From: Candidatus Kapaibacterium sp. | GTDB taxonomy: Bacteria > Bacteroidota > Ignavibacteria > Palsa-1295 | Length of the DNA: 64,000 nt | Direction: 5' to 3' | Assembly: GCA_046590205.1 (NCBI GenBank) | Contig: JBKJTT010000068.1 | Span: 4,819 to 68,818 of the forward strand | Position numbers and translations under genes: made by a program | Shown: positions 7,667-60,122 of the stretch, one piece after another | Layout of the letters: every line of letters starts with the position of its first letter | Numbering within the stretch: position 1 is the first letter of the stretch | The notes under the pieces: generated by a model | Databases searched by the model: none | What the model was told of the DNA's origin: nothing | Seen by the model: the letters and a program-made list of their open reading frames with translations, nothing else

Positions 7667-9307
7667 ATGACAGAGAAAAACACAGGGACCCCTACACTTG
7701 AGGAGCGAATTAAAACTCTGCAGCATACAATAGAAAACGGTAATCATCCGATACCCGAACTCCTCCTTCAAACGGAAGCTCTTATCACCGAAGCAAAAGA
7801 ATTGGGTGATAATGACGCCCTCTACAAACTTCTCACTGCAAAAGCTTCACAACTCTATTTTTGTGGCAAGCATGAGGAATCAAAAGAGTTTTACCTCGAA
7901 GTATTAGAGCAATGCCTGGCAGAGAATCGAAAAGAAGCACTCCCAAGAATTTATCTTGCCTTAGGCAGGCTTTATTCTACCATGCAAGATGACCGAGTCG
8001 CGCTTGATTATATTCACTTATCAAAAGCCGCCGCCGAAGAGGTAGATGATAAAGAAATCATTGCAGAGGGCAATATACTCAAAGGCATAACTCTCGCCAA
8101 GAGCCAACAGTACAATGAAGCACTTGACGCTTATAACGAAGCTGCACGATATTCATACGAAACGAATAACACCCGAAGAATGGGCGCTATCTTCTTTTTG
8201 ATGGCACAGCTTCATCATCATGCTGAAAACTATCAATCTGCGAAAGAATCATGTGAGCTTGCAATAAAATACTTCACCGAGTGTGACAATAAACGCGGAA
8301 TACTTATTGCGACAACACGACTTGCCTCGATCATCAGCGCTCTTGATGACCATACCAGAGCACTTGATATCCTCAATGAGCATGAAGGACAGGTAACACA
8401 TTTTTCACTCCCATATATATCATGCGGGTTCTATACCATTAAAGCAGAGATTCTTTTGGCGGTAAAAGACTACAGCCGTTGCGAAGAAACGTTACATCTC
8501 GCTTATGGATTTGTATTAGAATCAAATAATCCTCGCAACTTACTTGACCTCTACACAACCTTTATTAGTCTTTATCTACAAACCGACAGAATTTCTCAAG
8601 CCAGGGAGTACCTTGAGCAGGCATATACTATCGCAAAGGATAATAATGATTCTCATTGGGAGATGAAATTGCACAAGCATGAATCTGACCTGTATGCCCA
8701 GATCGGCGACTATCAACAGGCTCTCACACAATATATCCTTTACCATGAACAGGATAAAAAAATAGCTGCCGAAACAACTGAAGAGTGGCTTGCCATTATA
8801 CGCATTAATCATGAGCTTATTGAGAAAGAGCGCGAATCAGAAATTTACCGGCTTCGGTCAGAAAAACTCCAGCGAGAGCTTGTCAGTAAGTCAACGCACC
8901 TTGCTTCTGAATCGGAGATATTGACACGTTTCAGAGAAGAGCTAAAGGAAGTACTCTCCGAGAGTACCGAAGCCAGCGTTATCCTCCGTAAAATTAAGGA
9001 GAAGGTTATCGAAATTCCAATGTCTGCAGTAAATTGGGAGGAATTCGACAGACACTTTCATGATGCACATCCTGATTTTACCAAAAACCTCCTCCAACGC
9101 TTCCCCGACCTCACCCCAATGGAAGCAAAAGTATGTACACTACTTAAGGTTGGACTTACTTCTAAAGAGATTGCCCATATCCTTGTCCTTTCTGAAAGAA
9201 GTATTGAGAACCACAGGTATCGCCTCCGCAAGAAGTTGGGCTTTGGCGAGCAGAATATTTCCCAATTCCTCAATAGCGTAGAAACACAACTGGTACCATC
9301 GCGGTAA
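7667..9307 (+). CDS. TPR-repeat protein with a C-terminal LuxR/GerE-type HTH (transcriptional regulator)
   Basis: N-terminal TPR-like repeats are followed by a C-terminal LuxR-type helix-turn-helix (LTPMEAKVCTLLKVGLTSKEIAHILVLSERSIENHRYRLRKKLG). Confidence 0.7.
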   Translation: MTEKNTGTPTLEERIKTLQHTIENGNHPIPELLLQTEALITEAKELGDNDALYKLLTAKASQLYFCGKHEESKEFYLEVLEQCLAENRKEALPRIYLALGRLYSTMQDDRVALDYIHLSKAAAEEVDDKEIIAEGNILKGITLAKSQQYNEALDAYNEAARYSYETNNTRRMGAIFFLMAQLHHHAENYQSAKESCELAIKYFTECDNKRGILIATTRLASIISALDDHTRALDILNEHEGQVTHFSLPYISCGFYTIKAEILLAVKDYSRCEETLHLAYGFVLESNNPRNLLDLYTTFISLYLQTDRISQAREYLEQAYTIAKDNNDSHWEMKLHKHESDLYAQIGDYQQALTQYILYHEQDKKIAAETTEEWLAIIRINHELIEKERESEIYRLRSEKLQRELVSKSTHLASESEILTRFREELKEVLSESTEASVILRKIKEKVIEIPMSAVNWEEFDRHFHDAHPDFTKNLLQRFPDLTPMEAKVCTLLKVGLTSKEIAHILVLSERSIENHRYRLRKKLGFGEQNISQFLNSVETQLVPSR

Positions 9308-9699
9308 ATCCTTTTTGCCGTCCGGTTAAAGATTTATTTGAATTGAGTACTTTTTGAGTAGTGGGAAGTACTTAATGTAGAGGTATATTTGCATTGTATA
9401 TAATGCCATGTATAACAATATGATAACCACACAAATAGGTGCACCTTCAAGTAGTATGGAATTCGTATTCCTTTGGTGTACAGATAATGAAGCGGTGTAT
9501 GATCTAGGATAATGATTAAACAGCCATGTTTCTTGAGTGGGGGTGAGACCCTTTTTTAGAGATATAGAATACACGCTTCGTATGAAAACGCCCGATGATA
9601 TATCCAAGGAACTTGGAAATGTCATCGGGCGTTGTATTGATTGTGAGACTTATAGGTGTAGGGGGGTTCCATTTAGGCCCTTTGTATCTAGAGTCAAGG

Positions 9700-9745
9700 T
9701 GAGAGAAAAGCCCCGTTGACTTCGGTTGACGGGGTTTATTTTTTG
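9700..9745 (+). terminator. Intrinsic terminator-like hairpin about 80 nt upstream of the M24 peptidase start
   Basis: ccccgttgac ttcg gttgacgggg forms a stem (with two G-U wobble pairs in RNA) and is followed by tttattttttg. Confidence 0.5.
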
Positions 9746-9824
9746 CCCACCGAAAAAAATCGTAATATGCGAAGTTTTCTTTCTCCCTTTGGTGTTATCC
9801 ACGCCCAGTATTAACAAGGTATTA

Positions 9825-10901
9825 ATGGCAAGACTTGCACGACTTCAACGGACGGTACGCGATCATGGGCTTGATGCCTTAGTCGTAACTCACCTGCCTA
9901 ACATCAACTATCTCATCGGTTATACCGGCTCGAACGGTATCCTCGTCGTTCCGGCGCAGGGTAAACCACATTTCTTTACCGATTTTCGCTATAAATCGCA
10001 AGTCAAGATAGAAGTTGCAGGTGCGAAGATCTCTATTGTTGATAGAGAGAAACAACTCCTTGATGCCTTTGTTGAGAAGCAACTCTTTAGTGATTTTGAT
10101 GCTGTGGGCTTTGAAGAGTACAAGTGCCCCTATCACGTCTATGATTTTATCCGCAAGAAATTCCGTCATTTGAAACTCGTTGCAAAACGAGAGATGGTCG
10201 AGACAATGACGATGATCAAGACAGATGATGAGATCGACGCAATCGCCAAAGCAGCAGCAATCGGTGATCAGGTCTTTACAAAAATACTTGATGTTATTAA
10301 ACCGGGCGTTACCGAACTTGAGGTTTCGGCAGAGATAAGTTACCATGCCAAAAAGCTTGGCGGCGAAGGCGATGCCTTCGAGATTATCGTTGCAAGCGGC
10401 GAGCGCACTGCTCTTCCGCACGGTATCGCAACCGATAGAAAGATCAAAAAGAACGAACTCGTCACAATTGATTTTGGCTGCCGCTACAAAGGATTTAATT
10501 CCGATATGACGCGCACCGTATCTGTCGGAAAAGTATCAACCGAGCTTCAGAAGATTTACGATATCGTTCGGGTTGCACAACAGCGCGCAATTGATAAAGC
10601 AAAGCCTGGCATGAACGGCAGAGAACTTGATAATGTCGCGCGTGATTACATCACGCTTCACGGCTACGGCTCGAAGTTCGGGCATGGTACCGGGCATGGC
10701 ATTGGTATCGAAGTACATGAAGTCCCCATCATTGCACAGCGAGGCGAACGCTTTATCCTTGAGCCGAGCATGGTATTCACTATCGAACCGGGTATCTATG
10801 TTGATGGTGTAGGTGGTGTGCGTATTGAAGATGATGTTGTCATTACAAATGACGGATGCACCGTTCTTAATAAAACTACGAAGGACTTGATCGTTCTTTA
10901 A
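9825..10901 (+). CDS. M24-family Xaa-Pro aminopeptidase (PepP/PepQ-like)
   Basis: A creatinase-like N-terminal domain precedes an M24 metal-ligand region (HGTGHGIGIEVHE...). The start is set at the internal ATG at 9825 (MARLARLQ); the upstream part of the ORF overlaps the terminator. Confidence 0.8.
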   Translation: MARLARLQRTVRDHGLDALVVTHLPNINYLIGYTGSNGILVVPAQGKPHFFTDFRYKSQVKIEVAGAKISIVDREKQLLDAFVEKQLFSDFDAVGFEEYKCPYHVYDFIRKKFRHLKLVAKREMVETMTMIKTDDEIDAIAKAAAIGDQVFTKILDVIKPGVTELEVSAEISYHAKKLGGEGDAFEIIVASGERTALPHGIATDRKIKKNELVTIDFGCRYKGFNSDMTRTVSVGKVSTELQKIYDIVRVAQQRAIDKAKPGMNGRELDNVARDYITLHGYGSKFGHGTGHGIGIEVHEVPIIAQRGERFILEPSMVFTIEPGIYVDGVGGVRIEDDVVITNDGCTVLNKTTKDLIVL

Positions 10902-14036: not shown

Positions 14037-15809
14037 CTACCTCCCCACCATCTTCTTCAAATCCAACGACCAAGGCGTAACTGCTGCGCCTTGCTTGATG
14101 ACGTTCACACTTGCGCGCCAGCCGTCGGCAGGACAGGAGAGAGCAATATGATACGCTCCCGCAGGAAACGAACTCATATCTACTGCATACTGATGTAACC
14201 CATCAACATCGACTACCTCTTCACGAAGTACCGTTACTCCGATGCTGTTGAATACACGTAACTCAAGTATACCTTTTGTGCAGTTCTCAAATGTAAGGAC
14301 GGTCTTCTGATCGAGTGGGTTGGGTGAGGCATAAAGTTGTGTGGCCTGAAGCTTTTTCAGTTCTCGATCGGATGCTATGTTATTCAGATGTACCGGTATC
14401 TTCGAGGTACCATGCAATACGGCAATATATCCTACATCATCCCAGTCACGGTCAATATCTCTCTGGATTTTTGCGCAAGGATTTCCAATAATAATATCCT
14501 GCATATTATCACTGTCGGCAGTCAATGTATCGGGAACTCCACAATCATATTCTGACTGATAGTACATATCAATCTTATCGTTCATTGCATCACCGAGCAC
14601 ATAGAATGAATGAGTACCTGTAAAACCTGAGTAACTACTTCCACCACTATGTAATACACGATTTCCTGTACCCGTCATATCACCCATATCCCTTAATGCT
14701 TGAAAAGAGAAAATACCTTTAAATTGTGAATTGTACTTTGATGGTTTCCACATGAAGAAATCAGGCTTGTCTATCATTAGTCGTTTTTTCCCGAAATCAG
14801 GACCACCACGATAAATCCATAATGATTTTGTACTATCGTTGTCTGTCCCAAAAGATGGCATGAGATCAACCGAATGGTCATTTGGATCATTTCTTCGGTA
14901 AGCTTGCATTGTAAAAAAGAATGGAGACCAACTTCCCGAATCTAACCCATGCAGTTTCGGATTTTCATGCCGAGATAATAATGTATCAAAACGGATAGCA
15001 TTTGCAAATTTTTCCATGTTGAATGGGGGATCATTCTCATAAAAATACCCATTACTATAATAATCAAAGAAGACCGCGTCTGTTCTTCCTGAATTTCGGA
15101 AATCCGCATATGTACCATATCGACTGAATTCAAGTGAATCATATCTACCAAGACTCATTGCGGAATCATGTGTCACCATTTCTCCTGGATGATAGAGTGA
15201 GGAGCCACCTTTATACAACACAACATATGTGGTATCTCTATATCCAGGATTTCCTGTACCAACCATAAATAGTATGTCATCAACAGTATCAGAGGTAAGG
15301 CGAGCTACATAAGAAAGTGGAAAGGACATCCGGTCTATCGTCCAATCACTTTTCAAATTATATCGTAGCGTAGTAAATCGGGTTCTATTAAATCTACCAT
15401 TGTCGTCAGCCCAGAAAATAGTATCATATTGTTCGCCGAACACTATGACATCTGTATGCTGAGTATCTCTAAAGTGAGCAAACTTATAACTAGTCCCTAT
15501 CCAACCTCTGAAATCAAGATCTGTTTCTTCAACATTTTGGAGATCGTGAATATCAAGATCAGTACTAGTGCTAAAACTGCTAAAGATACCTAAATGCTTT
15601 GGTAAGCCATAGCTAATAATTCTTCTGTTATTTTCCCCTGGAAATTGCGGAATGTTATTTGTATAGCCGCCAAGTTCTTGTTGGTTTCTACTGCCATAGA
15701 CTGTATCAATATCTACCCCTAAAATAGGGTAAAAACAACCACTTTCAAACTGAGCATGAGCAATTCCCGCAGAAAGAACAAGATATGCTGTAATAATGAG
15801 TACTTTCAT
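14037..15809 (-). CDS. Hypothetical secreted protein with a T9SS C-terminal sorting domain
   Basis: The signal peptide is MKVLIITAYLVLSAGIAHAQ, with the start at the internal ATG 15809. The C-terminal region matches the Por/T9SS sorting-domain pattern (LYASPNPLDQKTVLTFE...GAYHIAL...), followed by a 17-aa tail. Confidence 0.6.
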   Translation of the reverse strand: MKVLIITAYLVLSAGIAHAQFESGCFYPILGVDIDTVYGSRNQQELGGYTNNIPQFPGENNRRIISYGLPKHLGIFSSFSTSTDLDIHDLQNVEETDLDFRGWIGTSYKFAHFRDTQHTDVIVFGEQYDTIFWADDNGRFNRTRFTTLRYNLKSDWTIDRMSFPLSYVARLTSDTVDDILFMVGTGNPGYRDTTYVVLYKGGSSLYHPGEMVTHDSAMSLGRYDSLEFSRYGTYADFRNSGRTDAVFFDYYSNGYFYENDPPFNMEKFANAIRFDTLLSRHENPKLHGLDSGSWSPFFFTMQAYRRNDPNDHSVDLMPSFGTDNDSTKSLWIYRGGPDFGKKRLMIDKPDFFMWKPSKYNSQFKGIFSFQALRDMGDMTGTGNRVLHSGGSSYSGFTGTHSFYVLGDAMNDKIDMYYQSEYDCGVPDTLTADSDNMQDIIIGNPCAKIQRDIDRDWDDVGYIAVLHGTSKIPVHLNNIASDRELKKLQATQLYASPNPLDQKTVLTFENCTKGILELRVFNSIGVTVLREEVVDVDGLHQYAVDMSSFPAGAYHIALSCPADGWRASVNVIKQGAAVTPWSLDLKKMVGR

Positions 15810-15868
15810 CTCTATAAAGACACGCGAGAATCCAAATGGATGCGTAGTGTCAGGGCAAAAATACGTCA

Positions 15869-16048
15869 TATCGTAGGGGCTCGCCGGTGGCGTGCCTGTT
15901 TTCAGCTCCGATAGAAGTTACGTTTCGCTCCTACGGAGCTCTGGAATGTTGCGGATACTTTTCCAGGGGCTCACGCCCCTGGCTACCGACGTGCCGCTCC
16001 TATCGGAGCTAAGGGGGCAGGGCACGCCACCGGCGAGCCCCTACGATA
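15869..16048. repeat. GC-rich nested palindromic element (MITE-like, or a structured RNA or operator) in the 770-bp divergent intergenic region
   Basis: The outer inverted repeat tatcgtaggggctcgccggtggcgtgcctg (15869-15898) pairs with cagggcacgccaccggcgagcccctacgata (16018-16048), about 30 bp with one indel. TA dinucleotides flank both ends. Inner hairpins are cagctccgatag/ctatcggagct, gctcc-tac-ggagc and ccagggg-ctcacg-cccctgg. An internal direct repeat is cgctcctacggagc / cgctcctatcggagc. Confidence 0.6.
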
Positions 16049-46064: not shown

Positions 46065-47132
46065 ATGACCACACTCTCTTTATACCGAAACAACTGGTTT
46101 CTTTTTCTATTTATTATAATACCGCTTTTATCGTGCTCACATGATGGCAAAGCTATTAAAATAGAGCCCACAACAGGCGGACCTGGTAACCCTAGTTTTG
46201 AAGAGGCGACAATAAATGATGGAAGCTCTGGAAAGAACTGGTTTGGCCCTCAAAAAGAATATGTGCCGCACTATGAGATAAAGATTGGGACATCCAACGC
46301 ATACGAGGGTAAACAATACGCAGAAGTGTACTCAACAGGTACTCCGACGGGTAGAGAATTTGGCAATATCATGCAATTTATTGATGCGACACCGTATAAG
46401 GGTAAAACTGTTCGATTTAGAGCTGCAGTCAGGGTTACATCTGAAAATGGCGGTAGAGCGCAGATGTGGATGCGTGTTGATAGACCTGACAACTCTATGG
46501 GTTTCTTTGACAACATGAATGACAGACCAATTACTAGCACAGAATGGAAGGAGTATGACATTGTCGGTACGATAGACACTGCCGCTGACAAAATATATAT
46601 TGGTTGTATGTTGATAGGTGAGGGTAAGATAAATGTTGATGCAGTAAGGTTTGACATCATTGATGAAAACCCGCCGCTATCGGCAACCGACCCATTCCGC
46701 AGTGGATGGGGGAGAGCCGGCAGCCATCCCAATGAATATAAGATGGGTTTTACCGAAGACAAAGAAGCTATCGCAAAAATCGAGTATACTTCAAAAGATG
46801 AACCCTCAGGATTTGGTACCTATATGCAAATGTATCCACCAGGTAAATGGGCAGGTAAGAAGCTCAAAATGACAGGATATATAAAGACAGAGAATATAGA
46901 GGATTGGTGTGGTATGTGGTGCCGTATTGATGGTGATAAAGAAGGAGAGTCACTCGATTTCGACAATATGCAAGATCGCCCTATTAAAGGAACCACTGAT
47001 TGGAAAAAATATGAGATCACCATCAATGTACCTACTAAAGCTTCTGCAATAGCGTATGGAGTATTAGTTGCCGGAAAAGGTACTGCATACTTCAAAGATA
47101 TCACGTTCGAAGAAATAGGTAAAGCTGACTAA
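46065..47132 (+). CDS. Hypothetical lipoprotein with repeated CBM4/9-like (galactose-binding-like) modules
   Basis: A lipobox (LLSCSHDG) is present. Two or three internally repeated modules of about 100 aa resemble carbohydrate-binding modules (...GKTVRFRAAVRV...MWMRVD... and ...KLKMTGYIKTE...MWCRIDG...). Confidence 0.45.
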   Translation: MTTLSLYRNNWFLFLFIIIPLLSCSHDGKAIKIEPTTGGPGNPSFEEATINDGSSGKNWFGPQKEYVPHYEIKIGTSNAYEGKQYAEVYSTGTPTGREFGNIMQFIDATPYKGKTVRFRAAVRVTSENGGRAQMWMRVDRPDNSMGFFDNMNDRPITSTEWKEYDIVGTIDTAADKIYIGCMLIGEGKINVDAVRFDIIDENPPLSATDPFRSGWGRAGSHPNEYKMGFTEDKEAIAKIEYTSKDEPSGFGTYMQMYPPGKWAGKKLKMTGYIKTENIEDWCGMWCRIDGDKEGESLDFDNMQDRPIKGTTDWKKYEITINVPTKASAIAYGVLVAGKGTAYFKDITFEEIGKAD

Positions 47133-47140
47133 AGTTACTT

Positions 47141-47857
47141 TCACTTCAAACCCAACTCTTTTTGCATACGAGGCGGAAGATTCCTTCCGCCTTCTCGCAT
47201 CGTTAGTCCTGATGAATCTTCTTTATATTCGCGAAAAAATTCAAATGTTAGGTCAGGATAGTGTTTACCTATTTCGCGCAGTGTCCAGCCGATGGCTTTA
47301 CGGGTGAAGAATCCTTTCTCGTGAAGAAGCTCTTCAAATGTCGGAATTGCAAACTCTGCGCGAAGCTGTTTCTTTCTTGATGGCATGACGTGGATGAGGA
47401 TGGCGGCACGTCTTGTCCAGAGGTGTTTGCTCTTTGTCCACTTCCGAACCTTCGGATATACTTCGTCGGGGTAGTTCATCGCAAGAGTACCGAGATGCCG
47501 CGTCGCAAGGTAATCAAGCATAGCCCAACCTTCACATTCTTGGGTTATCTTTTTAAGCATCGGCAGGTCTTTAGGAGTAAGTTCTTTATCGCACCTCTCG
47601 ATGAGCATCAACCCCGCCGCTTGTTCCTCGAACCAGTTCGACGACCAGAGCTCTAAGCCAAGCACGATGAGTTCGTCTTTATCAAGCTTCGGTTTTTTCG
47701 GGAAGACCTTCGTTACTGCCTCGACGAGAGCAGCATTCTTCAAGCCGTAAAAATCTTTGGTTGACTTGTGATAATTCTTATGGAACGCGGCATGAGTTTT
47801 ATCACGCCGCTTGTTGAGTTCTTTCCGAAGAGCCGCTATTCTCACATCACCCATCAC
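47141..47857 (-). CDS. DNA alkylation repair protein (AlkD/AlkC HEAT-like repeat glycosylase family)
   Basis: The sequence is collinear with AlkD-family motifs (YHKSTKDFYGLKNAAL, WTRRAAIL, RKAIGWTLREIGKHYPDL). Confidence 0.6.
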   Translation of the reverse strand: MMGDVRIAALRKELNKRRDKTHAAFHKNYHKSTKDFYGLKNAALVEAVTKVFPKKPKLDKDELIVLGLELWSSNWFEEQAAGLMLIERCDKELTPKDLPMLKKITQECEGWAMLDYLATRHLGTLAMNYPDEVYPKVRKWTKSKHLWTRRAAILIHVMPSRKKQLRAEFAIPTFEELLHEKGFFTRKAIGWTLREIGKHYPDLTFEFFREYKEDSSGLTMREGGRNLPPRMQKELGLK

Positions 47858-47875
47858 ACATTACTCATCACTCCG

Positions 47876-48583
47876 TTACGCCATTGTATGATAGACTGCC
47901 TGCACGTCATCGTCATCTTCCATGCGGTCGATGAGTTCGAAGACTTCCGTTGCCTGCTCTTCGTTGAGTTCTTTTGTTGTAGTGGGGAGGCGTTCTATCT
48001 TTGCTTCGGTGACAGGGATATGTTTCTCCTCAAGTGCTTTTTGCATTCCGGCAAAATCTGTGAAGGAAGTATAAACGATAACTTCATCGTCTTCAAGTTT
48101 AATATCTTCAGCGCCGAAATCAATCAACTCCAACTCAAGCTCATCCATCTTTACCTCGGCGGCGGGAAGCTTGAAAACACCTTTGCGGTCGAACATAAAT
48201 TCAACAGAGCCCGTCGTCCCGAATGAGCCACCAAGTTTATTGAAATAACTGCGGATATTTGCTACGGTGCGGGTCGGGTTATCGGTAGCGGCTTCGATCA
48301 TCAGTGCAATTCCATGCGGCGCGTATCCTTCATAGATCGCTTCATTGTAATCTTCGGCATCTTTGCTCGATGCACGCTTTATCGCACCTTCGACGCGGTC
48401 TTTGGGCATGTTAACGCCTTTGGCGTTCTGGATTGCTGCGCGGAGGCGGGGATTAGATTCCGGCTCCGGTCCGCCGAGCTTCACGGCAACGGCTATTTCC
48501 TTACCGAGTTTGGTGAACGCCTTGGACATTTTGTCCCAGCGCTTCATCTTTCTTACCTTACGGAATTCAAATGCTCTACCCAT
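47876..48583 (-). CDS. YebC/PmpR-family DNA-binding regulatory protein
   Basis: MGRAFEFRKVRKMKRWDKMSKAFTKLGKEI... is highly characteristic of the YebC family. The start is the ATG at 48583. Confidence 0.85.
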   Translation of the reverse strand: MGRAFEFRKVRKMKRWDKMSKAFTKLGKEIAVAVKLGGPEPESNPRLRAAIQNAKGVNMPKDRVEGAIKRASSKDAEDYNEAIYEGYAPHGIALMIEAATDNPTRTVANIRSYFNKLGGSFGTTGSVEFMFDRKGVFKLPAAEVKMDELELELIDFGAEDIKLEDDEVIVYTSFTDFAGMQKALEEKHIPVTEAKIERLPTTTKELNEEQATEVFELIDRMEDDDDVQAVYHTMA

Positions 48584-48644
48584 AGTGTATCTGGTTACAA
48601 CGGGCGTATCTAACACGGAATCCGGGTTCGGGGTTCTTTGGCAG

Positions 48645-48708
48645 TCGGTAGTCTTTAGTCGTTAGCAAGTAGAAGAACTCTGCATTTTACTAACGACTAA
48701 AGACTACC
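48645..48708. repeat. Perfect 20-bp-stem inverted repeat related to the palindromic element at 2813-2995
   Basis: cggtagtctttagtcgttag (48645-48664) pairs with ctaacgactaaagactaccg (48689-48708) around a 24-nt loop. It shares the tagtcgttag and ctaaagacta cores with 2826-2839 and 2976-2985. It lies in a divergent promoter region, so it is not a terminator. Confidence 0.6.
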
Positions 48709-48761
48709 GATTAACGACTATATTTGTTGTATCTTTGTACTCTATATCTGCAAAATACACC

Positions 48762-49343
48762 ATGAAACTCAAACTACTCGCACCTATTGGTTCTGCTATC
48801 GCTATCTTCGGATTCTTCTCACCGTGGATGAGCTGCGGCGCAATAAAATTCACGGGATATGACCTTGCTTCGGGGGCAAATATGGGTAGTAATACTACCG
48901 ATGCAGACATGATTATTTGGGTAGTGCTGATCGCCGCTGTCATTATCATTGCGCTTTACTTCTTATTCAATATGCGCCGTCAGCTAAAGAAAGCAATGAT
49001 ACCAACTATCGGCGCAGCAGTGCTCGGACTTTCGATTCTTGCCGCAAAGTACATTGATGTCGGGAAAACGAAGTCAGGGTTTAATGAAGGACTTGAGCAA
49101 GGGATGGCTGCGGGGGCTTCGGATAGCACAGTAACCAGCTCGAAAGAAATGGAAGGATTTGGTAATATGATGAGTGATTCTATTCGCATCGAATGGGGCT
49201 TTTGGCTCACTGCACTTGCCTTCGCAACCTCCATCGCCGGCGCATGGAATTACAAAGACGAACCACTCGTAGCTGATGCAACCGCAATCGGTACACCCCT
49301 CCCCGACGACGGAAGTAAGATGAATCAGGATTTGGGGATATAG
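48762..49343 (+). CDS. Hypothetical membrane protein
   Basis: Three or four transmembrane segments are visible. The start is the ATG at 48762 (MKLKLLAP...). No family could be assigned. Confidence 0.5.
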   Translation: MKLKLLAPIGSAIAIFGFFSPWMSCGAIKFTGYDLASGANMGSNTTDADMIIWVVLIAAVIIIALYFLFNMRRQLKKAMIPTIGAAVLGLSILAAKYIDVGKTKSGFNEGLEQGMAAGASDSTVTSSKEMEGFGNMMSDSIRIEWGFWLTALAFATSIAGAWNYKDEPLVADATAIGTPLPDDGSKMNQDLGI

Positions 49344-49380
49344 GGGAGAAAGCAACACCACACACAAAGCTATACTATAT

Positions 49381-49890
49381 ATGATTGCTCTATTATTCAT
49401 ATTTCTATTCATTACTAATCCGATAGAGGTGTCATCTCTTAGGTTTGGGATTTCTGCGGGTGAACTCAAAAAAGATATGAAGAATAAATACATGTCCTGT
49501 GATACCCTCTATACAGGAGTTGTGGAGCCAAGAATAGAATATCTTTGCTACGCACCTGTCATATTCCACAGACTTTCTATGTTTATGAGTGTTCAGCTTG
49601 ATAGGAACGGGAAGGTCGTTAGGTATAGATTCCAAAATGCCAAGTCCACCGACTTTGAACAGCTCGTCCCCAACATCGCGCGAACGAAAGCCGACAGCAC
49701 GATACCCGTCAAATACACAGCTGATGATTTTCTAATACTTACAGAATCGCTCTCAAAAATATTAGGTGAAGGAAAACCATCCGTTGAGAATGGAGTAGCG
49801 ACAATGGATTGGAGTAATGACAGTCAAAAATTGATTACGGTGATGAATGTAGAAGAAGGCGTGATTGAGCTTTTCTATATGATGTATTAA
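49381..49890 (+). CDS. Hypothetical protein (N-terminal hydrophobic segment)
   Basis: This is a 169-aa ORF in a lower-GC stretch, with a signal- or anchor-like N-terminus and no recognisable domain. Confidence 0.45.
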   Translation: MIALLFIFLFITNPIEVSSLRFGISAGELKKDMKNKYMSCDTLYTGVVEPRIEYLCYAPVIFHRLSMFMSVQLDRNGKVVRYRFQNAKSTDFEQLVPNIARTKADSTIPVKYTADDFLILTESLSKILGEGKPSVENGVATMDWSNDSQKLITVMNVEEGVIELFYMMY

Positions 49891-49897
49891 TGACTGT

Positions 49898-50842
49898 ATG
49901 AGACTACGACTTCTATTTATATCATTCATAATCACCTCAACGGCATACTCACAGGGAACTCCTTACTCCGTATCTATTGACTATAAGACTGTCAGAAAAA
50001 TTAAAGAAAAGTGTATTATCGGTGTTAGATTCGACATCGGAGAATCACAAACGCATCCAAACTCTACAAAAAAAGATGGCGATCTGCATATAGGTGGGTC
50101 TACTACTGACTTAGGGTTCAATACGGTTGCTGAAATAATGAATGCCAAAGATGTTCAAGCTGCAATAGATACTGTTCATAACTGCGAAGTAGAGAAGAGA
50201 CCTCTAAATCTTGTTGGTTGTTGGAGATTGTGGTTTGAACACCAAAAAGCGGATGAAGAACAAGATTATGAAGTAGAGCCAGAAGATGAGAATACAAATC
50301 CTGATCATACTTGGGAAATTCACCCTGTTTTAGAGATAAATGGTTATTCTATAGCTAACACTCTGCGACCTATTAGAGAAGGGCTTGATGAATATGAGTA
50401 CAAAAAGGCAGAAAAAACAATCAAAATTTTTAGTAATACGAAGTGTACAGTAACATACTCTGATTCTAGTTTGAGGATTCAATCAAAAAAGCTTGGCTAC
50501 AATTATTGTGCATTCACAATTAGGCCAACCTCTAAACTCAAGAAGATCCCCGGATTCAAAAAAAACGGCAGAACATATGTAGGGGGTCATTACTTAAGTG
50601 CTAATGTTGCAGGCAAAGGGAAAAAAAACCTTGCTTCAAATATTCGTTTTATATTCCCGCCTAGAACATCATCTGAAAACAAAATTAAAAAACTAACCGG
50701 CAAGTCATTACAAGTAGTTGCCATACCCAGAGTTTCTCTGTCTGCTATTTATCATTGGAAAAAATCAGCGAAGAAAAAAACAGTAATAGAACAGTTGCCA
50801 ATTGAATTTATAGTAGTTGCAGTGCTTAGGATTAGTAGTTGA
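49898..50842 (+). CDS. Hypothetical secreted protein
   Basis: The signal peptide is MRLRLLFISFIITSTAYSQG and the C-terminus is Lys-rich. The ORF is visibly AT-rich relative to its neighbours. Confidence 0.5.
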   Translation: MRLRLLFISFIITSTAYSQGTPYSVSIDYKTVRKIKEKCIIGVRFDIGESQTHPNSTKKDGDLHIGGSTTDLGFNTVAEIMNAKDVQAAIDTVHNCEVEKRPLNLVGCWRLWFEHQKADEEQDYEVEPEDENTNPDHTWEIHPVLEINGYSIANTLRPIREGLDEYEYKKAEKTIKIFSNTKCTVTYSDSSLRIQSKKLGYNYCAFTIRPTSKLKKIPGFKKNGRTYVGGHYLSANVAGKGKKNLASNIRFIFPPRTSSENKIKKLTGKSLQVVAIPRVSLSAIYHWKKSAKKKTVIEQLPIEFIVVAVLRISS

Positions 50843-50853
50843 ATTTTGGATTT

Positions 50854-51021
50854 CTAAGCAACTCTCAAGCGGTCTTGAAGGATTAATGAGATAGCTTCCG
50901 AAAGACTCTCATTTGCTTCTTCCTTGGTTCTGCCTTGACCGTTCGCACCGGGAATCTCTGGACAGTAGGCGATATACCACTCCCCATCTTGTTCTATTAT
51001 TGATGTGAATTCATGCTTCAT
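50854..51021 (-). CDS. UPF0150/HicB-like small protein (55 aa), no adjacent hicA
   Basis: This ORF is not in the track (under 60 aa). Hand translation gives MKHEFTSIIEQDGEWYIAYCPEIPGANGQGRTKEEANESLSEAISLILQDRLRVA. The Y.A.CPE(I/L)PG...G.T.EEA...EAI pattern is the hallmark of the HicB N-terminal/UPF0150 fold. It sits 34 nt downstream of the metH-like gene on the same strand. Confidence 0.55.
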   Translation of the reverse strand: MKHEFTSIIEQDGEWYIAYCPEIPGANGQGRTKEEANESLSEAISLILQDRLRVA

Positions 51022-51055: not shown

Positions 51056-52882
51056 TTACGCCGCCTTCTTCACCGTCTCCCACTTGCGTTCATCGAAGAT
51101 GAGTTGTCTTGCGAGTTCTCTGCCTTTTTCATCTATTTTATGGAGCGGCATGATCTTGCCTGAATGCACGATAGCCATATCAAGACCTGCCTCGATGGCG
51201 TAGTGCATAAAGACAGAGTTCAGGACGTGACGTGAATGCGGATTCAAGCCGAAGGAAATATTCGAGACACCGAGAATGGTGCGACACTTTGGGTGCAGTT
51301 TCTTGATGAGTCGTATCGCTTCGATTGTTTCGATACCTGCGCCTCGGAATTCATCATCACCTGAACCGAGTGTAAATGTCAGTGTATCGAAAATAAGGTC
51401 TTCTTCACGCATTCCGTACTTACTCACAGAGAGATCAATGATGCGTTCGGCTATCTCAAACTTTTTCTCTCGCGTTTTTGCCATCCCAAGCTCGTCAATA
51501 GTAAGAGCGATAACGGCTGCGCCATAACGCTTGCAGAGCGGAAGAACATGCGCCATGCGCTCTTCGCCGTCTTCAAGATTGATTGAATTAATAATAGCTC
51601 TGCCTGCATAGAGCTTTAGTGCTTCTTCCATGACGGGATACTCTGTCGAATCAATAACAACGGGAAGTGTTACCTGCGTATTAAAGAGCTTCATAACTTC
51701 TCGCATATCGCGGACTTCATCACGTCCGACATACGCAACGCATAAATCAAGCATGTGTGCGCCTTCTTTGACCTGCTCCTTCGCCATCGCGACAGCACTT
51801 TCGTAATCCTCTTTGAGTATCAGGTCTTTGAATTTCTTCGAGCCGTTGGTATTACATCTCTCACCAACGATAACCGGAGCTGGCTCCATGTTGAGCGGTG
51901 CTGATGAATAGATAGATGATGCAGATGGTGTCCAACTTACCGAACGCTCTTTGGTTGTGATACTTTGTGCAAGTGAAGCGAGACGAGCTATATGGTCTTT
52001 ACGAGTACCGCAGCAGCCGCCGATGATAGAGACGCCGAGATCGCCTACGAAATGCTTCATCCACTTCTCCATCTCTTCAGGTGTGAGATGATAATGCGCT
52101 ACGCCGCCGACATTTTCCGGCAGACCGGCATTCGGCATACAGAAGATCGGTTTCGATGAGCTTTGCGTCAGGAAGCGGACGTTCTCTTCCATCTCCTTCG
52201 GACCTGTCGCACAGTTCATCCCAATAGCAGTGATAAAGTCATACGGCTCAAGCGCAGTGAGTGCCGCGCTTATCTCCGTACCCATGAGCATCGTGCCCAT
52301 CGTCTCGATAGTGACGGATGTGATGACGGGAATCTGAATCTTGCGCTCGGCAAAGAGGTCTTGCACTGCGGCAAGTGCTGCTTTCATCTGTAAAAGATCT
52401 TGCGATGTCTCGATGCAGAAAAGGTCTGCACCACCATCAAGCATACCTGCCATCTGTGTATAGAACGTATCGCGTTGTTCATCGAATGTGATGTGTCCAA
52501 GAGAAGGCAACTTTGTTGTAGGACCGATAGAACCAGCTACAAAACGCGGTCGCTCTTTGGTTGAAAAATCACGCGCTACTTTCTTTGCCAACTCGGTCGC
52601 TTCTTTCGAGAGTTCGTAAGCCAAGTGTCCGAGGTCATACTCGGCAAGGACGATAGATGCAGAGCCGAAGGTATTCGTCTCGATAACATCCGCTCCGGCA
52701 TCAAGGTAATCGTAATGTACAAGCTCGACAGCCGATGGCTTCGAGCGCACAAGATACTCGTTACAGCCCGCCAAGTGCTCACCGCCAAAATCATCGGGCG
52801 TGAGGTTCTGGGTCTGCAAATGCGTACCGGTAGCCCCGTCAAAGACGACAGGACGTTCTTGTATGAGTTGTTCAAAGGTCAT
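51056..52882 (-). CDS. metH: Methionine synthase-like protein with homocysteine S-methyltransferase and pterin-binding domains only (no cobalamin-binding or AdoMet domains)
   Basis: The homocysteine-domain Zn-ligand motifs are present (GMNCATGP, IGGCCGT). The pterin-binding domain is recognisable (INSINLEDGEERMAHVLPLCKRYGAAVIALTIDE). The protein ends without a DxHxxG cobalamin-binding motif. Confidence 0.7.
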   Translation of the reverse strand: MTFEQLIQERPVVFDGATGTHLQTQNLTPDDFGGEHLAGCNEYLVRSKPSAVELVHYDYLDAGADVIETNTFGSASIVLAEYDLGHLAYELSKEATELAKKVARDFSTKERPRFVAGSIGPTTKLPSLGHITFDEQRDTFYTQMAGMLDGGADLFCIETSQDLLQMKAALAAVQDLFAERKIQIPVITSVTIETMGTMLMGTEISAALTALEPYDFITAIGMNCATGPKEMEENVRFLTQSSSKPIFCMPNAGLPENVGGVAHYHLTPEEMEKWMKHFVGDLGVSIIGGCCGTRKDHIARLASLAQSITTKERSVSWTPSASSIYSSAPLNMEPAPVIVGERCNTNGSKKFKDLILKEDYESAVAMAKEQVKEGAHMLDLCVAYVGRDEVRDMREVMKLFNTQVTLPVVIDSTEYPVMEEALKLYAGRAIINSINLEDGEERMAHVLPLCKRYGAAVIALTIDELGMAKTREKKFEIAERIIDLSVSKYGMREEDLIFDTLTFTLGSGDDEFRGAGIETIEAIRLIKKLHPKCRTILGVSNISFGLNPHSRHVLNSVFMHYAIEAGLDMAIVHSGKIMPLHKIDEKGRELARQLIFDERKWETVKKAA

Positions 52883-52947
52883 TAGTAACATAATACGAAT
52901 CTACGACGAATTAGTTCATATTATTGTTAAACGGCTTGAGCAAAACC

Positions 52948-53769
52948 ATGAAACTTCAAGCCAAAAAATCTCTCGGACAGAATTTCCTTCACGATGAAGG
53001 CATACTTCGCCGTATTGCAGATGCAGCGAAGATAGAATCAGGCGATACAGTTGCCGAGATCGGTCCCGGGCTTGGCGCATTGACAAAACAACTTCTCAAG
53101 AAAGACCTTGCTAAACTCATTGCATATGAGGTTGATGATCGAGCAATAGAGTTACTTCAAAAGGAATTCATTGACCCTCGCTTTGAACTTCGGCATGAAG
53201 ACATACTTCAAGTTAACCTGACCGAAATCTCAAATGATAGACTACGAGTAGTTGGCAACATCCCCTATTATATCACAAGTCCAATCATCTTTAAACTCAT
53301 TGATGATAGACAGTATATTAGAGATGCACTTTTACTGGTTCAACTCGAAGTTGCAGAGCGACTTACCGCCGAACCACGAACGAAAGCATACGGCATCCCG
53401 ACCGTGCTCACTAATTTCTTCGGTGAAGTAACATACCTTTTTAAGGTCAAAGCCGGATCATTTAGACCTGCTCCAAAGGTAGATTCTGCTGTTATTCATA
53501 TCAACTTTGAGCGTGGGTATTTCCCGAGGAATAACCTCTCAATTCCAGAGGGTTTTGACACGAAAGACTTCCAACGCTTTATTCGTCAGGTCTTTGCTAT
53601 GCGCCGCAAAACACTGCGTAACAATCTAAAGGCGTTTGCAAGTGAGGCGGGGATGGGAATGTTGGAGTCCGACACGATCCTATCAAACTATCTCGGCAAG
53701 AGAGCCGAAGAGCTGATAATCTCTGATTTCCTAAAGATATACGAAGTAATAACTCATTCGTCGGAATGA
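52948..53769 (+). CDS. rsmA: 16S rRNA (adenine1518-N6/adenine1519-N6)-dimethyltransferase RsmA/KsgA
   Basis: SLGQNFLHDEGILRRI...VAEIGPGLGALT is the typical KsgA N-terminus and SAM motif. The start is the ATG at 52948. Confidence 0.85.
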   Translation: MKLQAKKSLGQNFLHDEGILRRIADAAKIESGDTVAEIGPGLGALTKQLLKKDLAKLIAYEVDDRAIELLQKEFIDPRFELRHEDILQVNLTEISNDRLRVVGNIPYYITSPIIFKLIDDRQYIRDALLLVQLEVAERLTAEPRTKAYGIPTVLTNFFGEVTYLFKVKAGSFRPAPKVDSAVIHINFERGYFPRNNLSIPEGFDTKDFQRFIRQVFAMRRKTLRNNLKAFASEAGMGMLESDTILSNYLGKRAEELIISDFLKIYEVITHSSE

Positions 53770-59918: not shown

Positions 59919-60122
59919 ATGCAGATTGGTAACGAAAACTACGAGATTCTAGTAAAGCGCGAAGGTGAAACGGGTTACTCCGCTTTTTGTCCGGAGCTTG
60001 AGCTTATTGTACGCGGGACAGCGCATGTGCAAGTTGAAGAAAAGATGAAACTGCTCATCCAAGAGCATGTTGCAAAAAAAAATGCTGAAGCCGCGGCTTC
60101 CAACGGCGTTTCAAAGAACTAA
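59919..60122 (+). CDS. UPF0150/HicB-like small protein (67 aa) immediately upstream of priA
   Basis: YEILVKREGETGYSAFCPELELIVRGTAHVQVEEKMKLLIQEHV matches the UPF0150/HicB N-terminal fold pattern. An 18-nt gap separates it from priA. Confidence 0.55.
   Translation: MQIGNENYEILVKREGETGYSAFCPELELIVRGTAHVQVEEKMKLLIQEHVAKKNAEAAASNGVSKN

Follow-up and report, generated by a model that had tools for sequence, protein, structure and literature searches.

A probable recombination hotspot between TM193 and a metH-like gene of a Candidatus Kapaibacterium, with putative envelope ligand-binding cargo and a separate HicB-like gene

The TM193–metH interval

Chromosomal hotspots located between conserved core genes, also called genomic islets, are a general concept of bacterial pangenome work. 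Here we describe such an interval in a 64-kb stretch of Candidatus Kapaibacterium sp. (contig JBKJTT010000068.1; the whole stretch is called the window below), between TM193, a gene that codes for a polytopic membrane protein, and a metH-like gene. In the explanation that we consider the best one, and rather probable, this interval is a recombination hotspot in which two adjacent genes, p169 and p314, form cargo with a putative ligand-binding role at the cell envelope, and a small HicB-like gene is a separate piece of cargo. A preliminary description, made from the sequence alone, had presented the same place as a low-GC islet of three membrane or secreted proteins ending in an orphan HicB-like gene, and the four open reading frames (ORFs) that it named were all found again at the same coordinates. 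The genes of the locus are the following:

47141-47857, minus strand: DNA-alkylation-repair gene, left flank.
47876-48616, minus strand: yebC-family gene, left flank.
48762-49343, plus strand: TM193, a polytopic membrane protein of 193 amino acids (aa) counted from the ATG; left boundary, not cargo.
49381-49890, plus strand: p169 (169 aa), an orphan with an N-terminal hydrophobic segment.
49898-50842, plus strand: p314 (314 aa), a Lys-rich protein with a Sec signal peptide, from an uncharacterised extracytoplasmic family.
50854-51021, minus strand: HicB/UPF0150-like gene (55 aa), solitary, with only the N-terminal antitoxin-fold domain.
51056-52891, minus strand: metH-like gene (611 aa; S-methyltransferase and pterin-binding domains, a Pfam assignment taken from the copies in related contigs), convergent with TM193; right boundary, not cargo.

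The cargo (1.7 kb) fills exactly the interval between the convergent stop codons of TM193 and metH. p169 starts 37 nt after the TM193 stop and lies 7 nt before p314, a tight spacing which suggests that the three genes are probably co-transcribed; p169 and p314 would then probably be expressed by read-through from the TM193 promoter. A Bacteroidota-type TAnnTTTG motif can be read upstream of TM193, at about 48720-48745. The stop codon of p314 is separated by 11 nt from that of the convergent HicB-like ORF, which starts 34 nt downstream of the metH stop and on the same strand as metH. The intergenic region between the divergent yebC and TM193 genes also contains (48645-48710) a near-perfect 24-nt inverted repeat, 96% complementary and with an 18-nt loop, which occurs once in the window and is absent from the same intergenic region of four related contigs (L085, L086, L088 and L093); possible interpretations of this element are an operator, a hairpin element and a small insertion.

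Contents of the slot in related contigs

The slot was compared between the window and seven related metagenomic contigs that share its left or its right flank (L086 and L087 were paired, as were L089 and L090). Closest to the window locus is L001, a 7.9-kb Logan contig with the order TM193, p169, p314, small ORF, metH. The left flank (RecQ, the DNA-alkylation-repair gene, yebC and TM193) and the right flank (metH) are conserved, and between them the slot holds:

Window and L001: p169, p314 and the HicB-like gene.
L088 (a 1.45-Mb contig): nothing; the stops of TM193 and metH are 1 nt apart (TAG-A-CTA).
L086 and L087: one protein of 314 aa that has a signal peptide and, weakly matched, a tail of the type IX secretion system (T9SS).
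L085: a 327-aa protein, 45% identical to the cargo of L086 and L087, plus DUF5615 and DUF433 on the minus strand.
L093: a third protein related to the T9SS-tailed one, truncated by the end of the contig.
L089 and L090: an unrelated 220-aa protein and DUF433.
L092 (more distantly related): only minus-strand genes, namely a PIN_3 fragment and a gene of 86 aa.

The cassette formed by p169, p314 and the HicB-like gene is found in one of the seven related contigs (L001). The cargo types are mutually unrelated in all-against-all BLASTP, and four unrelated plus-strand cargo types and three toxin-antitoxin (TA) types occupy the slot, which is made up of two sub-slots: one for plus-strand cargo just after TM193, and one for small TA-type genes of the minus strand just after metH. 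The presence, absence or replacement of genes between conserved flanks, which is one of the criteria for genomic islands, takes here the form of an empty site (L088) and at least four other configurations. Every cargo has a GC content of 0.37-0.40, against 0.44-0.47 for its own locus. The only direct repeat flanking the cargo (49385-49400 and 50989-51004) matches at 14 of 16 nt; it is part of coding sequence, and the match was judged to be due to chance.

In the alternative cargo of L085 and L086 a signal peptide is accompanied by a weak match to Por_Secre_tail/CHU_C, and the copies of this cargo in three contigs (L085, L086/L087 and L093) share 30-45% identity. T9SS sorting domains are also present in neighbouring genes of the related contigs, and the host lineage clearly uses this system; together with the TAnnTTTG motifs, these domains point to the Bacteroidota/Ignavibacteriota group. 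With its signal peptide and weakly matched tail, the alternative cargo (L085, L086 and L093) resembles the T9SS cargo of Bacteroidota and the Fibrobacteres-Chlorobi-Bacteroidetes (FCB) group, whereas a Pfam search found neither Por_Secre_tail nor CHU_C on p314, and no C-terminal sorting domain on p169, so that secretion through T9SS is predicted for neither protein.

Between the window and L001, amino-acid identity is 97.7% for metH, 89% for the HicB-like protein (60 aa in L001) and 81-82% for TM193, p169 and p314. The ratios of nonsynonymous to synonymous substitution (dN/dS, Nei-Gojobori) are 0.131 for p169, 0.111 for p314, 0.097 for TM193, 0.038 for the HicB-like gene and 0.025 for metH, with dS values from 0.64 to 1.7 over the five genes. 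Such ratios indicate purifying selection on all five, and therefore that none of them is a spurious ORF.

Base composition and codon usage

The segment 49381-50842 has a GC content of 0.375, while windows of the same length have a mean of 0.455 (standard deviation, sd, 0.023; z about -3.5); it is the lowest-GC stretch of its length (1.46 kb) in the 64 kb, with 0.08% of windows equally low. Taking the 47 long ORFs of the window as reference (mean GC 0.456, sd 0.032; mean GC at third codon positions, GC3, 0.449, sd 0.070), p314 has a GC of 0.363 and the minimum GC3 of all (0.283), and p169 has a GC of 0.396. Ranked by synonymous codon-usage divergence among 43 genes, p314 is second and p169 third. 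The AT-rich stretch that the preliminary description placed at about 49.35-50.85 kb is therefore real and beyond chance, and the GC and codon-usage analysis that it proposed as a check found the deviation for p169 and p314; atypical composition and codon usage, another criterion for genomic islands, is thus observed for this pair. The same description had counted the 193-aa membrane protein as part of the stretch, but TM193 has a GC of 0.479, above the gene mean, and the HicB-like gene one of 0.446, so that the compositional islet consists of p169 and p314 and not of three proteins. The window has other low-GC ORFs, one of 610 aa (14037-15869, minus strand; GC 0.403, GC3 0.329) and one of 99 aa (9326-9625, minus strand; GC 0.35), which may be further accessory genes.

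The flanking core genes TM193 and metH

TM193 contains the invariant motif GFFSPWMSCG and has 18 homologues, about ten of them with 75-89% identity and the others down to 33%. In all related contigs it adjoins metH, whether cargo is present or not, and it is a conserved, syntenic core gene of the lineage with normal GC content. Since it is kept regardless of the cargo, TM193 does not belong to the cassette and is not a dedicated immunity or partner protein, the role that had been suggested for the membrane protein in the preliminary description.

The two flanks also inform about how the cargo has moved. metH is 96-98% identical at the amino-acid level in all pairs of related contigs, and the TM193 identities are 89% between the window and L085, 82% between the window and L001, and 91% between L001 and L088; the TM193 gene tree disagrees with cargo sharing, the window being closer to L085 and its cargo being common to L001. 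In addition, two allele types are found for the central, hydrophilic loop of TM193 (alignment columns 301-450), in combinations that are mosaic with respect to the rest of the gene: in this loop the window groups with L085 and L086 (73-85% identity), against 61-67% to L001, L088 and L089. The discordant tree and the allele mosaicism together suggest repeated exchange by recombination through the conserved flanks. Sliding identity along TM193 showed the mosaicism and no breakpoint tied to cargo, and a scan of metagenome contigs for further TM193 loci gave one short contig.

The p314 protein and its predicted structure

p314 contains 10.5% lysine, against 5.8% for the window, and has an isoelectric point of 9.4; its N-terminus can be read directly as a typical Sec signal peptide (MRLRLLFISFIITSTAYS followed by QG), in agreement with the preliminary description, which had called the protein secreted and Lys-rich. 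With a Sec signal and without a T9SS tail, p314 would be exported by the Sec pathway and probably be kept in the periplasm or at the envelope. The absence of recognisable domains in the three plus-strand proteins was also confirmed, all of them remaining below threshold in Pfam, NCBIfam, PADLOC and PHROG; 31 homologues of p314 likewise gave no hits.

The family alignment has 16 invariant columns (N82, G107, W109, R110, W112, E114, H115, N134, P135, H137, H142, P143, N202, Y203, P277 and R278) and 27 nearly invariant ones, with the motifs KDGDLHIAG, VAEIMNA, G(V/A)WRxWxEH, TNPDHxFEIHP, GYNY, GIPR and LPYEMI. An AlphaFold2 model built from this alignment reached a predicted local distance difference test (pLDDT) of 90.4 and a predicted template modelling score of 0.87. 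In the order of its secondary structure elements, an OB-like barrel comprises residues 40-147 and a second one residues 182-312, and the model shows the defining arrangement of the OB superfold, in which five strands close into a beta-barrel and a helix is inserted between strands 3 and 4. Foldseek against the PDB gave weak whole-chain alignments to the tandem-OB proteins Teb1, RPA70 and HIN-200, with template modelling scores of 0.24 or less, and against BFVD it gave only phage single-stranded DNA-binding proteins (SSBs); over both libraries the hits were generic single or tandem OB folds with whole-chain scores no higher than 0.25, so that no whole-chain match exists among the solved structures of the PDB or the viral structures of BFVD. 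The family profile found no match, and no SSB, among PDB sequences.

The conserved polar and aromatic residues (N55, D60, D62, H64, E79, N82, W109, R110, W112, E114, H115, N134, H137, E140 and H142) are concentrated between positions 55 and 143, and within the first barrel they fall on strands 2, 3 and 5 and on the L12 and L45 loops. Such elements usually form the ligand-binding face of OB folds, which makes a metal-assisted binding or catalytic site plausible in p314, placed by secondary-structure order and not by coordinates. The protein would most likely bind, and may also process, a ligand in the envelope, perhaps with the help of a metal.

OB-fold proteins such as SSB, PriB, Stn1, RPA70, Teb1, the BOF/YgiW-type lipoprotein 3f1z and CusF/SilF share 4-14% sequence identity with p314, and none of these families matches its conserved set of His, Asp, Glu, Trp and Arg residues. 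SSB and RPA are cytoplasmic DNA binders, whereas p314 is exported, and assignment as an SSB/RPA-type protein was rejected because there is no Pfam SSB match and because p314 and most of its relatives carry signal peptides. A supposed resemblance to staphylococcal nuclease, which is likewise a secreted OB-fold protein and has a DGD motif in the loop that leads into strand 2, acidic residues behind strand 3 and an Arg close to strand 4, failed in hhalign, with a probability of 0.25%, and none of 31 members has a Pfam SNase match.

The p314 family

A word-indexed search with p314 found 31 homologues, one of them 82% identical and the rest 25-38%; the nearest relatives outside L001 are 34-38% identical and belong to other phyla. 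An exhaustive profile search found 763 representatives of 50% clusters (E<=1e-3) among 1.84 billion, and a pattern scan of GTDB species genomes gave 211 confirmed loci, mostly in Acidobacteriota, with others in Ignavibacteria, Bacteroidota, Gemmatimonadota, Bradyrhizobium, Nitrospirota, Armatimonadota and Planctomycetota. The family is real, sparse and patchy across phyla. In 116 of 179 members the domain is immediately preceded by a short hydrophobic N-terminus, 30 members have a longer extension with a hydrophobic segment and 5 a long extension without one; with a hydrophobic segment in 146 members, the domain is extracytoplasmic almost everywhere.

Thirty of the 72 family loci with usable gene calls, mainly from Acidobacteriota, have directly upstream and in the same orientation, frequently overlapping by 4 nt, a gene for a protein of about 330 aa with three transmembrane segments. 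This partner has no Pfam domain, is unrelated to TM193 or p169, and is found neither in the window nor in fused members of the family; it is conserved and, being translationally coupled to its p314 homologue, constitutes with it an uncharacterised two-gene operon of Acidobacteriota (for instance in L007, with the partner at 8892-9959, about 1 kb upstream of the match, and in L009, L010 and L013). At the 40 loci without this partner no neighbour recurs, defence and mobility genes included, and Pfam matches among 100 neighbours of p314 homologues are a housekeeping mix with a single integrase. In one case (P0011) the homologue is flanked by two tyrosine recombinases, within a run of hypothetical genes.

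About 5 of the 179 members contain a further domain that Pfam recognises, and several members carry multi-transmembrane C-terminal extensions. The fused proteins are arranged as follows:

P0163 (516 aa): N-terminal TIR domain (TIR_2, E=5.9e-29), transmembrane helix at 179-197, p314-type domain outside the membrane.
P0104: zinc ribbon, transmembrane helix, coiled coil, p314-type domain.
P0083 and P0106: signal peptide, pYEATS domain, p314-type domain.
P0164: alpha/beta hydrolase, then p314-type domain; no transmembrane segment.
P0062: SHD1 and SNase before the p314-type domain; an internal Met and a signal peptide suggest two merged ORFs.

The predicted layout of P0163 resembles that of a Toll-like receptor, in a bacterium. 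As these members show, the p314-type module is usually tethered to the membrane or active at it, and a role as a sensor is possible, although fusions are rare. A literature search on conflict systems with pYEATS, TIR and transmembrane proteins gave nothing specific to this family.

p169

p169 is represented by two sequences among 5.8 billion, its own and the L001 copy, which is 81% identical. No match above threshold was found in the domain databases, and phmmer against all ORFs of 84 loci recovered the L001 copy only, with no relative beside other p314 homologues. Structure prediction, which the preliminary description had recommended, was informative for p314, but the AlphaFold2 model of p169 has a pLDDT of 48 and is unusable. 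The protein has a single hydrophobic segment at its N-terminus, a signal peptide or a membrane anchor. The simplest reading would be that p169 is a lineage-specific partner of p314, tethered to the membrane by this hydrophobic helix; it is suggested by the adjacency of the two genes (7 nt), by the conservation of p169 (dN/dS 0.13) and by analogy with the acidobacterial arrangement.

The HicB-like gene

The assignment of the 55-aa ORF to UPF0150/HicB in the preliminary description is weak, with Pfam scores below cut-off, though consistent across several sources: UPF0150 gives 22.3 bits (cut-off 27.3) and HicB_lk_antitox 17 bits, PHROG 497 ('HicB-like') gives E=3.4e-8, the best PDB sequence matches are TTHA1756 (E=0.016) and HicB (E=0.14), and the protein is 43% identical to an annotated HicB on the Synechocystis plasmid pSYLB (WP_028946505.1). 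It shares the N-terminal pattern ...GxYxAxxPExPG...G.T.EEA...EAI with UPF0150 and HicB proteins (TTHA1756, 2yzt; HicB, 6g1c/6g1n), and its length is similar to that of stand-alone UPF0150 proteins. Canonical HicB has in addition a DNA-binding half, whereas the window protein ends at residue 55, after the N-terminal domain, and has no C-terminal ribbon-helix-helix or helix-turn-helix domain. The Synechocystis homologue overlaps hicA, but the window gene has no HicA: there is no adjacent gene for it, tblastn with the Synechocystis partner HicA over the window gave a best E of 0.85, and the distances of 34 nt to the metH stop and 11 nt to the p314 stop leave no room for one. With the Synechocystis HicB, tblastn gave a second, weak match elsewhere in the window (59967-60050, plus strand; E=0.038, 41% over 29 residues), which is probably due to chance.

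This gene had been seen as closing a single cassette; its position downstream of metH and on the other strand assigns it instead to a separate sub-slot, which in relatives is empty or contains either PIN-type genes or DUF433, the latter sometimes accompanied by DUF5615. The most suitable description of the gene is that of a solitary antitoxin-like gene, located where TA modules accumulate; it would have lost its HicA toxin or never have had one. It could be a relic or, more speculatively, an anti-addiction antitoxin directed against an incoming HicA. In L085 (7749-8324) and L089 (10346-10549), the DUF433 genes beside metH are 92% identical to each other; L085 alone has the DUF5615 (PIN-like) partner, and DUF433 is 10 residues shorter in L089. 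This looks like a TA module in decay and would be a parallel to the HicB-like gene of the window, which has no toxin either.

Other variable junctions of the locus

RecQ and the DNA-alkylation-repair gene enclose a second variable slot, about 2 kb left of the first, in which the window has a 355-aa lipoprotein-like protein (46065-47132, plus strand) with a weak CBM_4_9 match, a GC of 0.418 and a GC3 of 0.374; RecQ and the DNA-alkylation-repair gene are directly adjacent in L085 and L086, and a different 144-aa gene lies between them in L093. A third variable junction lies to the right of metH (window 52891-52948). There the window and L092 run straight into rsmA/ksgA, and L001, L086, L088 and L089 have an AcrB-type RND pump, followed in L086, L088 and L089 by an MFP gene, a DUF6263 gene and then rsmA; in L085 a Sortilin-like protein of the T9SS occupies this place.

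Probable exchange of cargo at the slot and alternative explanations

In the explanation that we favour, small low-GC accessory genes would be swapped in and out between the stop codons of TM193 and metH in this uncultivated lineage, and the slot of the window would hold two independent pieces of cargo, p169-p314 on the plus strand and the HicB-like gene on the minus strand. With no mobility genes in the slot, the likely mode is replacement by flanking homology. Fixed core flanks, alternative low-GC cargo, one empty site and accumulation of TA genes are features shared with known genomic islets and integration hotspots; unlike the usual ones, this hotspot has a content of 0-1.7 kb placed exactly between convergent stops, is associated with no integrase, tRNA or repeats, and contains cargo that is probably expressed by read-through from core genes. 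The preliminary description had proposed a horizontally acquired cassette, and presence/absence, composition and phyletic patchiness agree with it for p169, p314 and the HicB-like gene; TM193 is core. Syntenic orthologues, which would have spoken against acquisition, are conserved for TM193 only, the three other genes being shared with one of the seven contigs. Several observations weigh against this explanation. The ORFs of the slot include no integrase or transposase, the 64-kb window has no tRNA and there is no convincing flanking repeat; the mechanism of exchange, homologous recombination through the flanks, is a putative one. Between the window and L001, cargo and metH have similar dS values (0.8-1.0 and 0.64), which makes the cassette look vertically inherited within this pair, and differential loss may account for part of the presence/absence pattern. 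Moreover, p169 has no homologue beside other family members and is unrelated to the acidobacterial three-transmembrane partner, and the ligand, metal and activity of p314 are putative, its invariant residues being placed by secondary-structure order.

Some of these points would equally fit a history without horizontal transfer, in which ancestral fast-evolving genes were differentially lost or replaced and acquired a low GC content by relaxed or AT-biased evolution. The absence of mobility genes and att-like repeats, cargo dS values comparable with those of the flanks, an identical GC in the window and L001, and the T9SS-tailed cargo of three contigs, whose 30-45% identity is that of an old fast-evolving resident, are all compatible with it. 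We nevertheless regard this history as unlikely, because four unrelated plus-strand cargo types and three TA types occupy one slot, the nearest kin of p314 beyond L001 (34-38%) are in other phyla, the GC3 of p314 is the extreme of the window and the TM193 tree is discordant with cargo sharing. That the ORFs are spurious products of an AT-rich non-coding spacer, as the absence of annotation or domains and the orphan status of p169 might suggest, has practically no probability left: it is refuted by the dN/dS of 0.11-0.13 at a dS of about 0.8-1.0 and, for p314, by hundreds of homologues, an alignment with 16 invariant residues and a model with a pLDDT of 90.

Two functional readings concern the cargo itself. 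The preliminary description had suggested an effector with its immunity or partner protein, or a novel defence or competition module, and p314 could indeed be imagined as an exported toxin for which p169 or the membrane protein would act in an immunity or partner role: p314 is exported, basic and located in a variable low-GC slot, it evolves fast (82% identity where metH has 97.7%) and is adjacent to a small protein with a hydrophobic anchor, one member of the family follows or is fused to a secreted SNase-like nuclease, another is fused to an alpha/beta hydrolase, and one homologue lies between two integrases. We consider this quite improbable, because no toxin or trafficking domain is recognised, p314 lacks a T9SS C-terminal domain or any marker of type VI or type VII secretion or contact-dependent inhibition, TM193 is core and independent of the cargo, p169 lies upstream of p314 and has no relatives at the other approximately 200 family loci, the gene downstream of p314 is antitoxin-like and on the opposite strand, most p314 homologues are solitary among housekeeping neighbours, and a dN/dS of 0.11 gives no sign of diversifying selection. 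Little credence can also be given to a new component of envelope surveillance or anti-phage defence, in which the p314-type domain, a tandem OB, would be an unrecognised extracytoplasmic sensor, and the cassette of the window, with p169, a minimal mobile module of this kind. A few bacteria could wire the domain through a single transmembrane helix to a cytoplasmic TIR domain or zinc ribbon, and most could use it as a free periplasmic protein with a small membrane partner (p169 here, the three-transmembrane protein in Acidobacteriota). The rare members in which a TIR domain, or a zinc ribbon with a coiled coil, is joined to the domain across the membrane, the TA genes collected by the slot in relatives and the patchy, horizontally transferred distribution are consistent with this. 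On the other side, none of the four proteins has a match in PADLOC-DB v2 even at E<=1, fusions are a small minority and the two with pYEATS are themselves secreted, no defence or mobility genes recur around the 40 loci without the three-transmembrane partner, and the p314 of the window has no effector partner. No PADLOC match, toxin domain, secretion tag on p314, HicA or recurrent defence or mobility neighbour was found that would point to an effector, defence or competition function for the cassette as a whole.

Significance

The locus is an ordinary micro-hotspot and a real, horizontally exchanged islet that carries one uncharacterised protein family; as it stands it shows no new mechanism, and its unit consists of two genes plus an orphan antitoxin-like gene, not of a module of three membrane or secreted proteins. 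As a micro-hotspot it is unusually clean, with 0-1.7 kb of cargo and at least five alternative contents among close relatives, and it could serve as a compact natural model of accessory-gene swapping by flanking homology in uncultivated bacteria of the FCB group. Its lasting value lies in the p314 family, which is exported, has a confident structural model and several hundred members, and is represented by no Pfam model and no solved relative; the rare fusions to TIR domains through a transmembrane helix and the conserved membrane partner of Acidobacteriota provide experimental handles on it.

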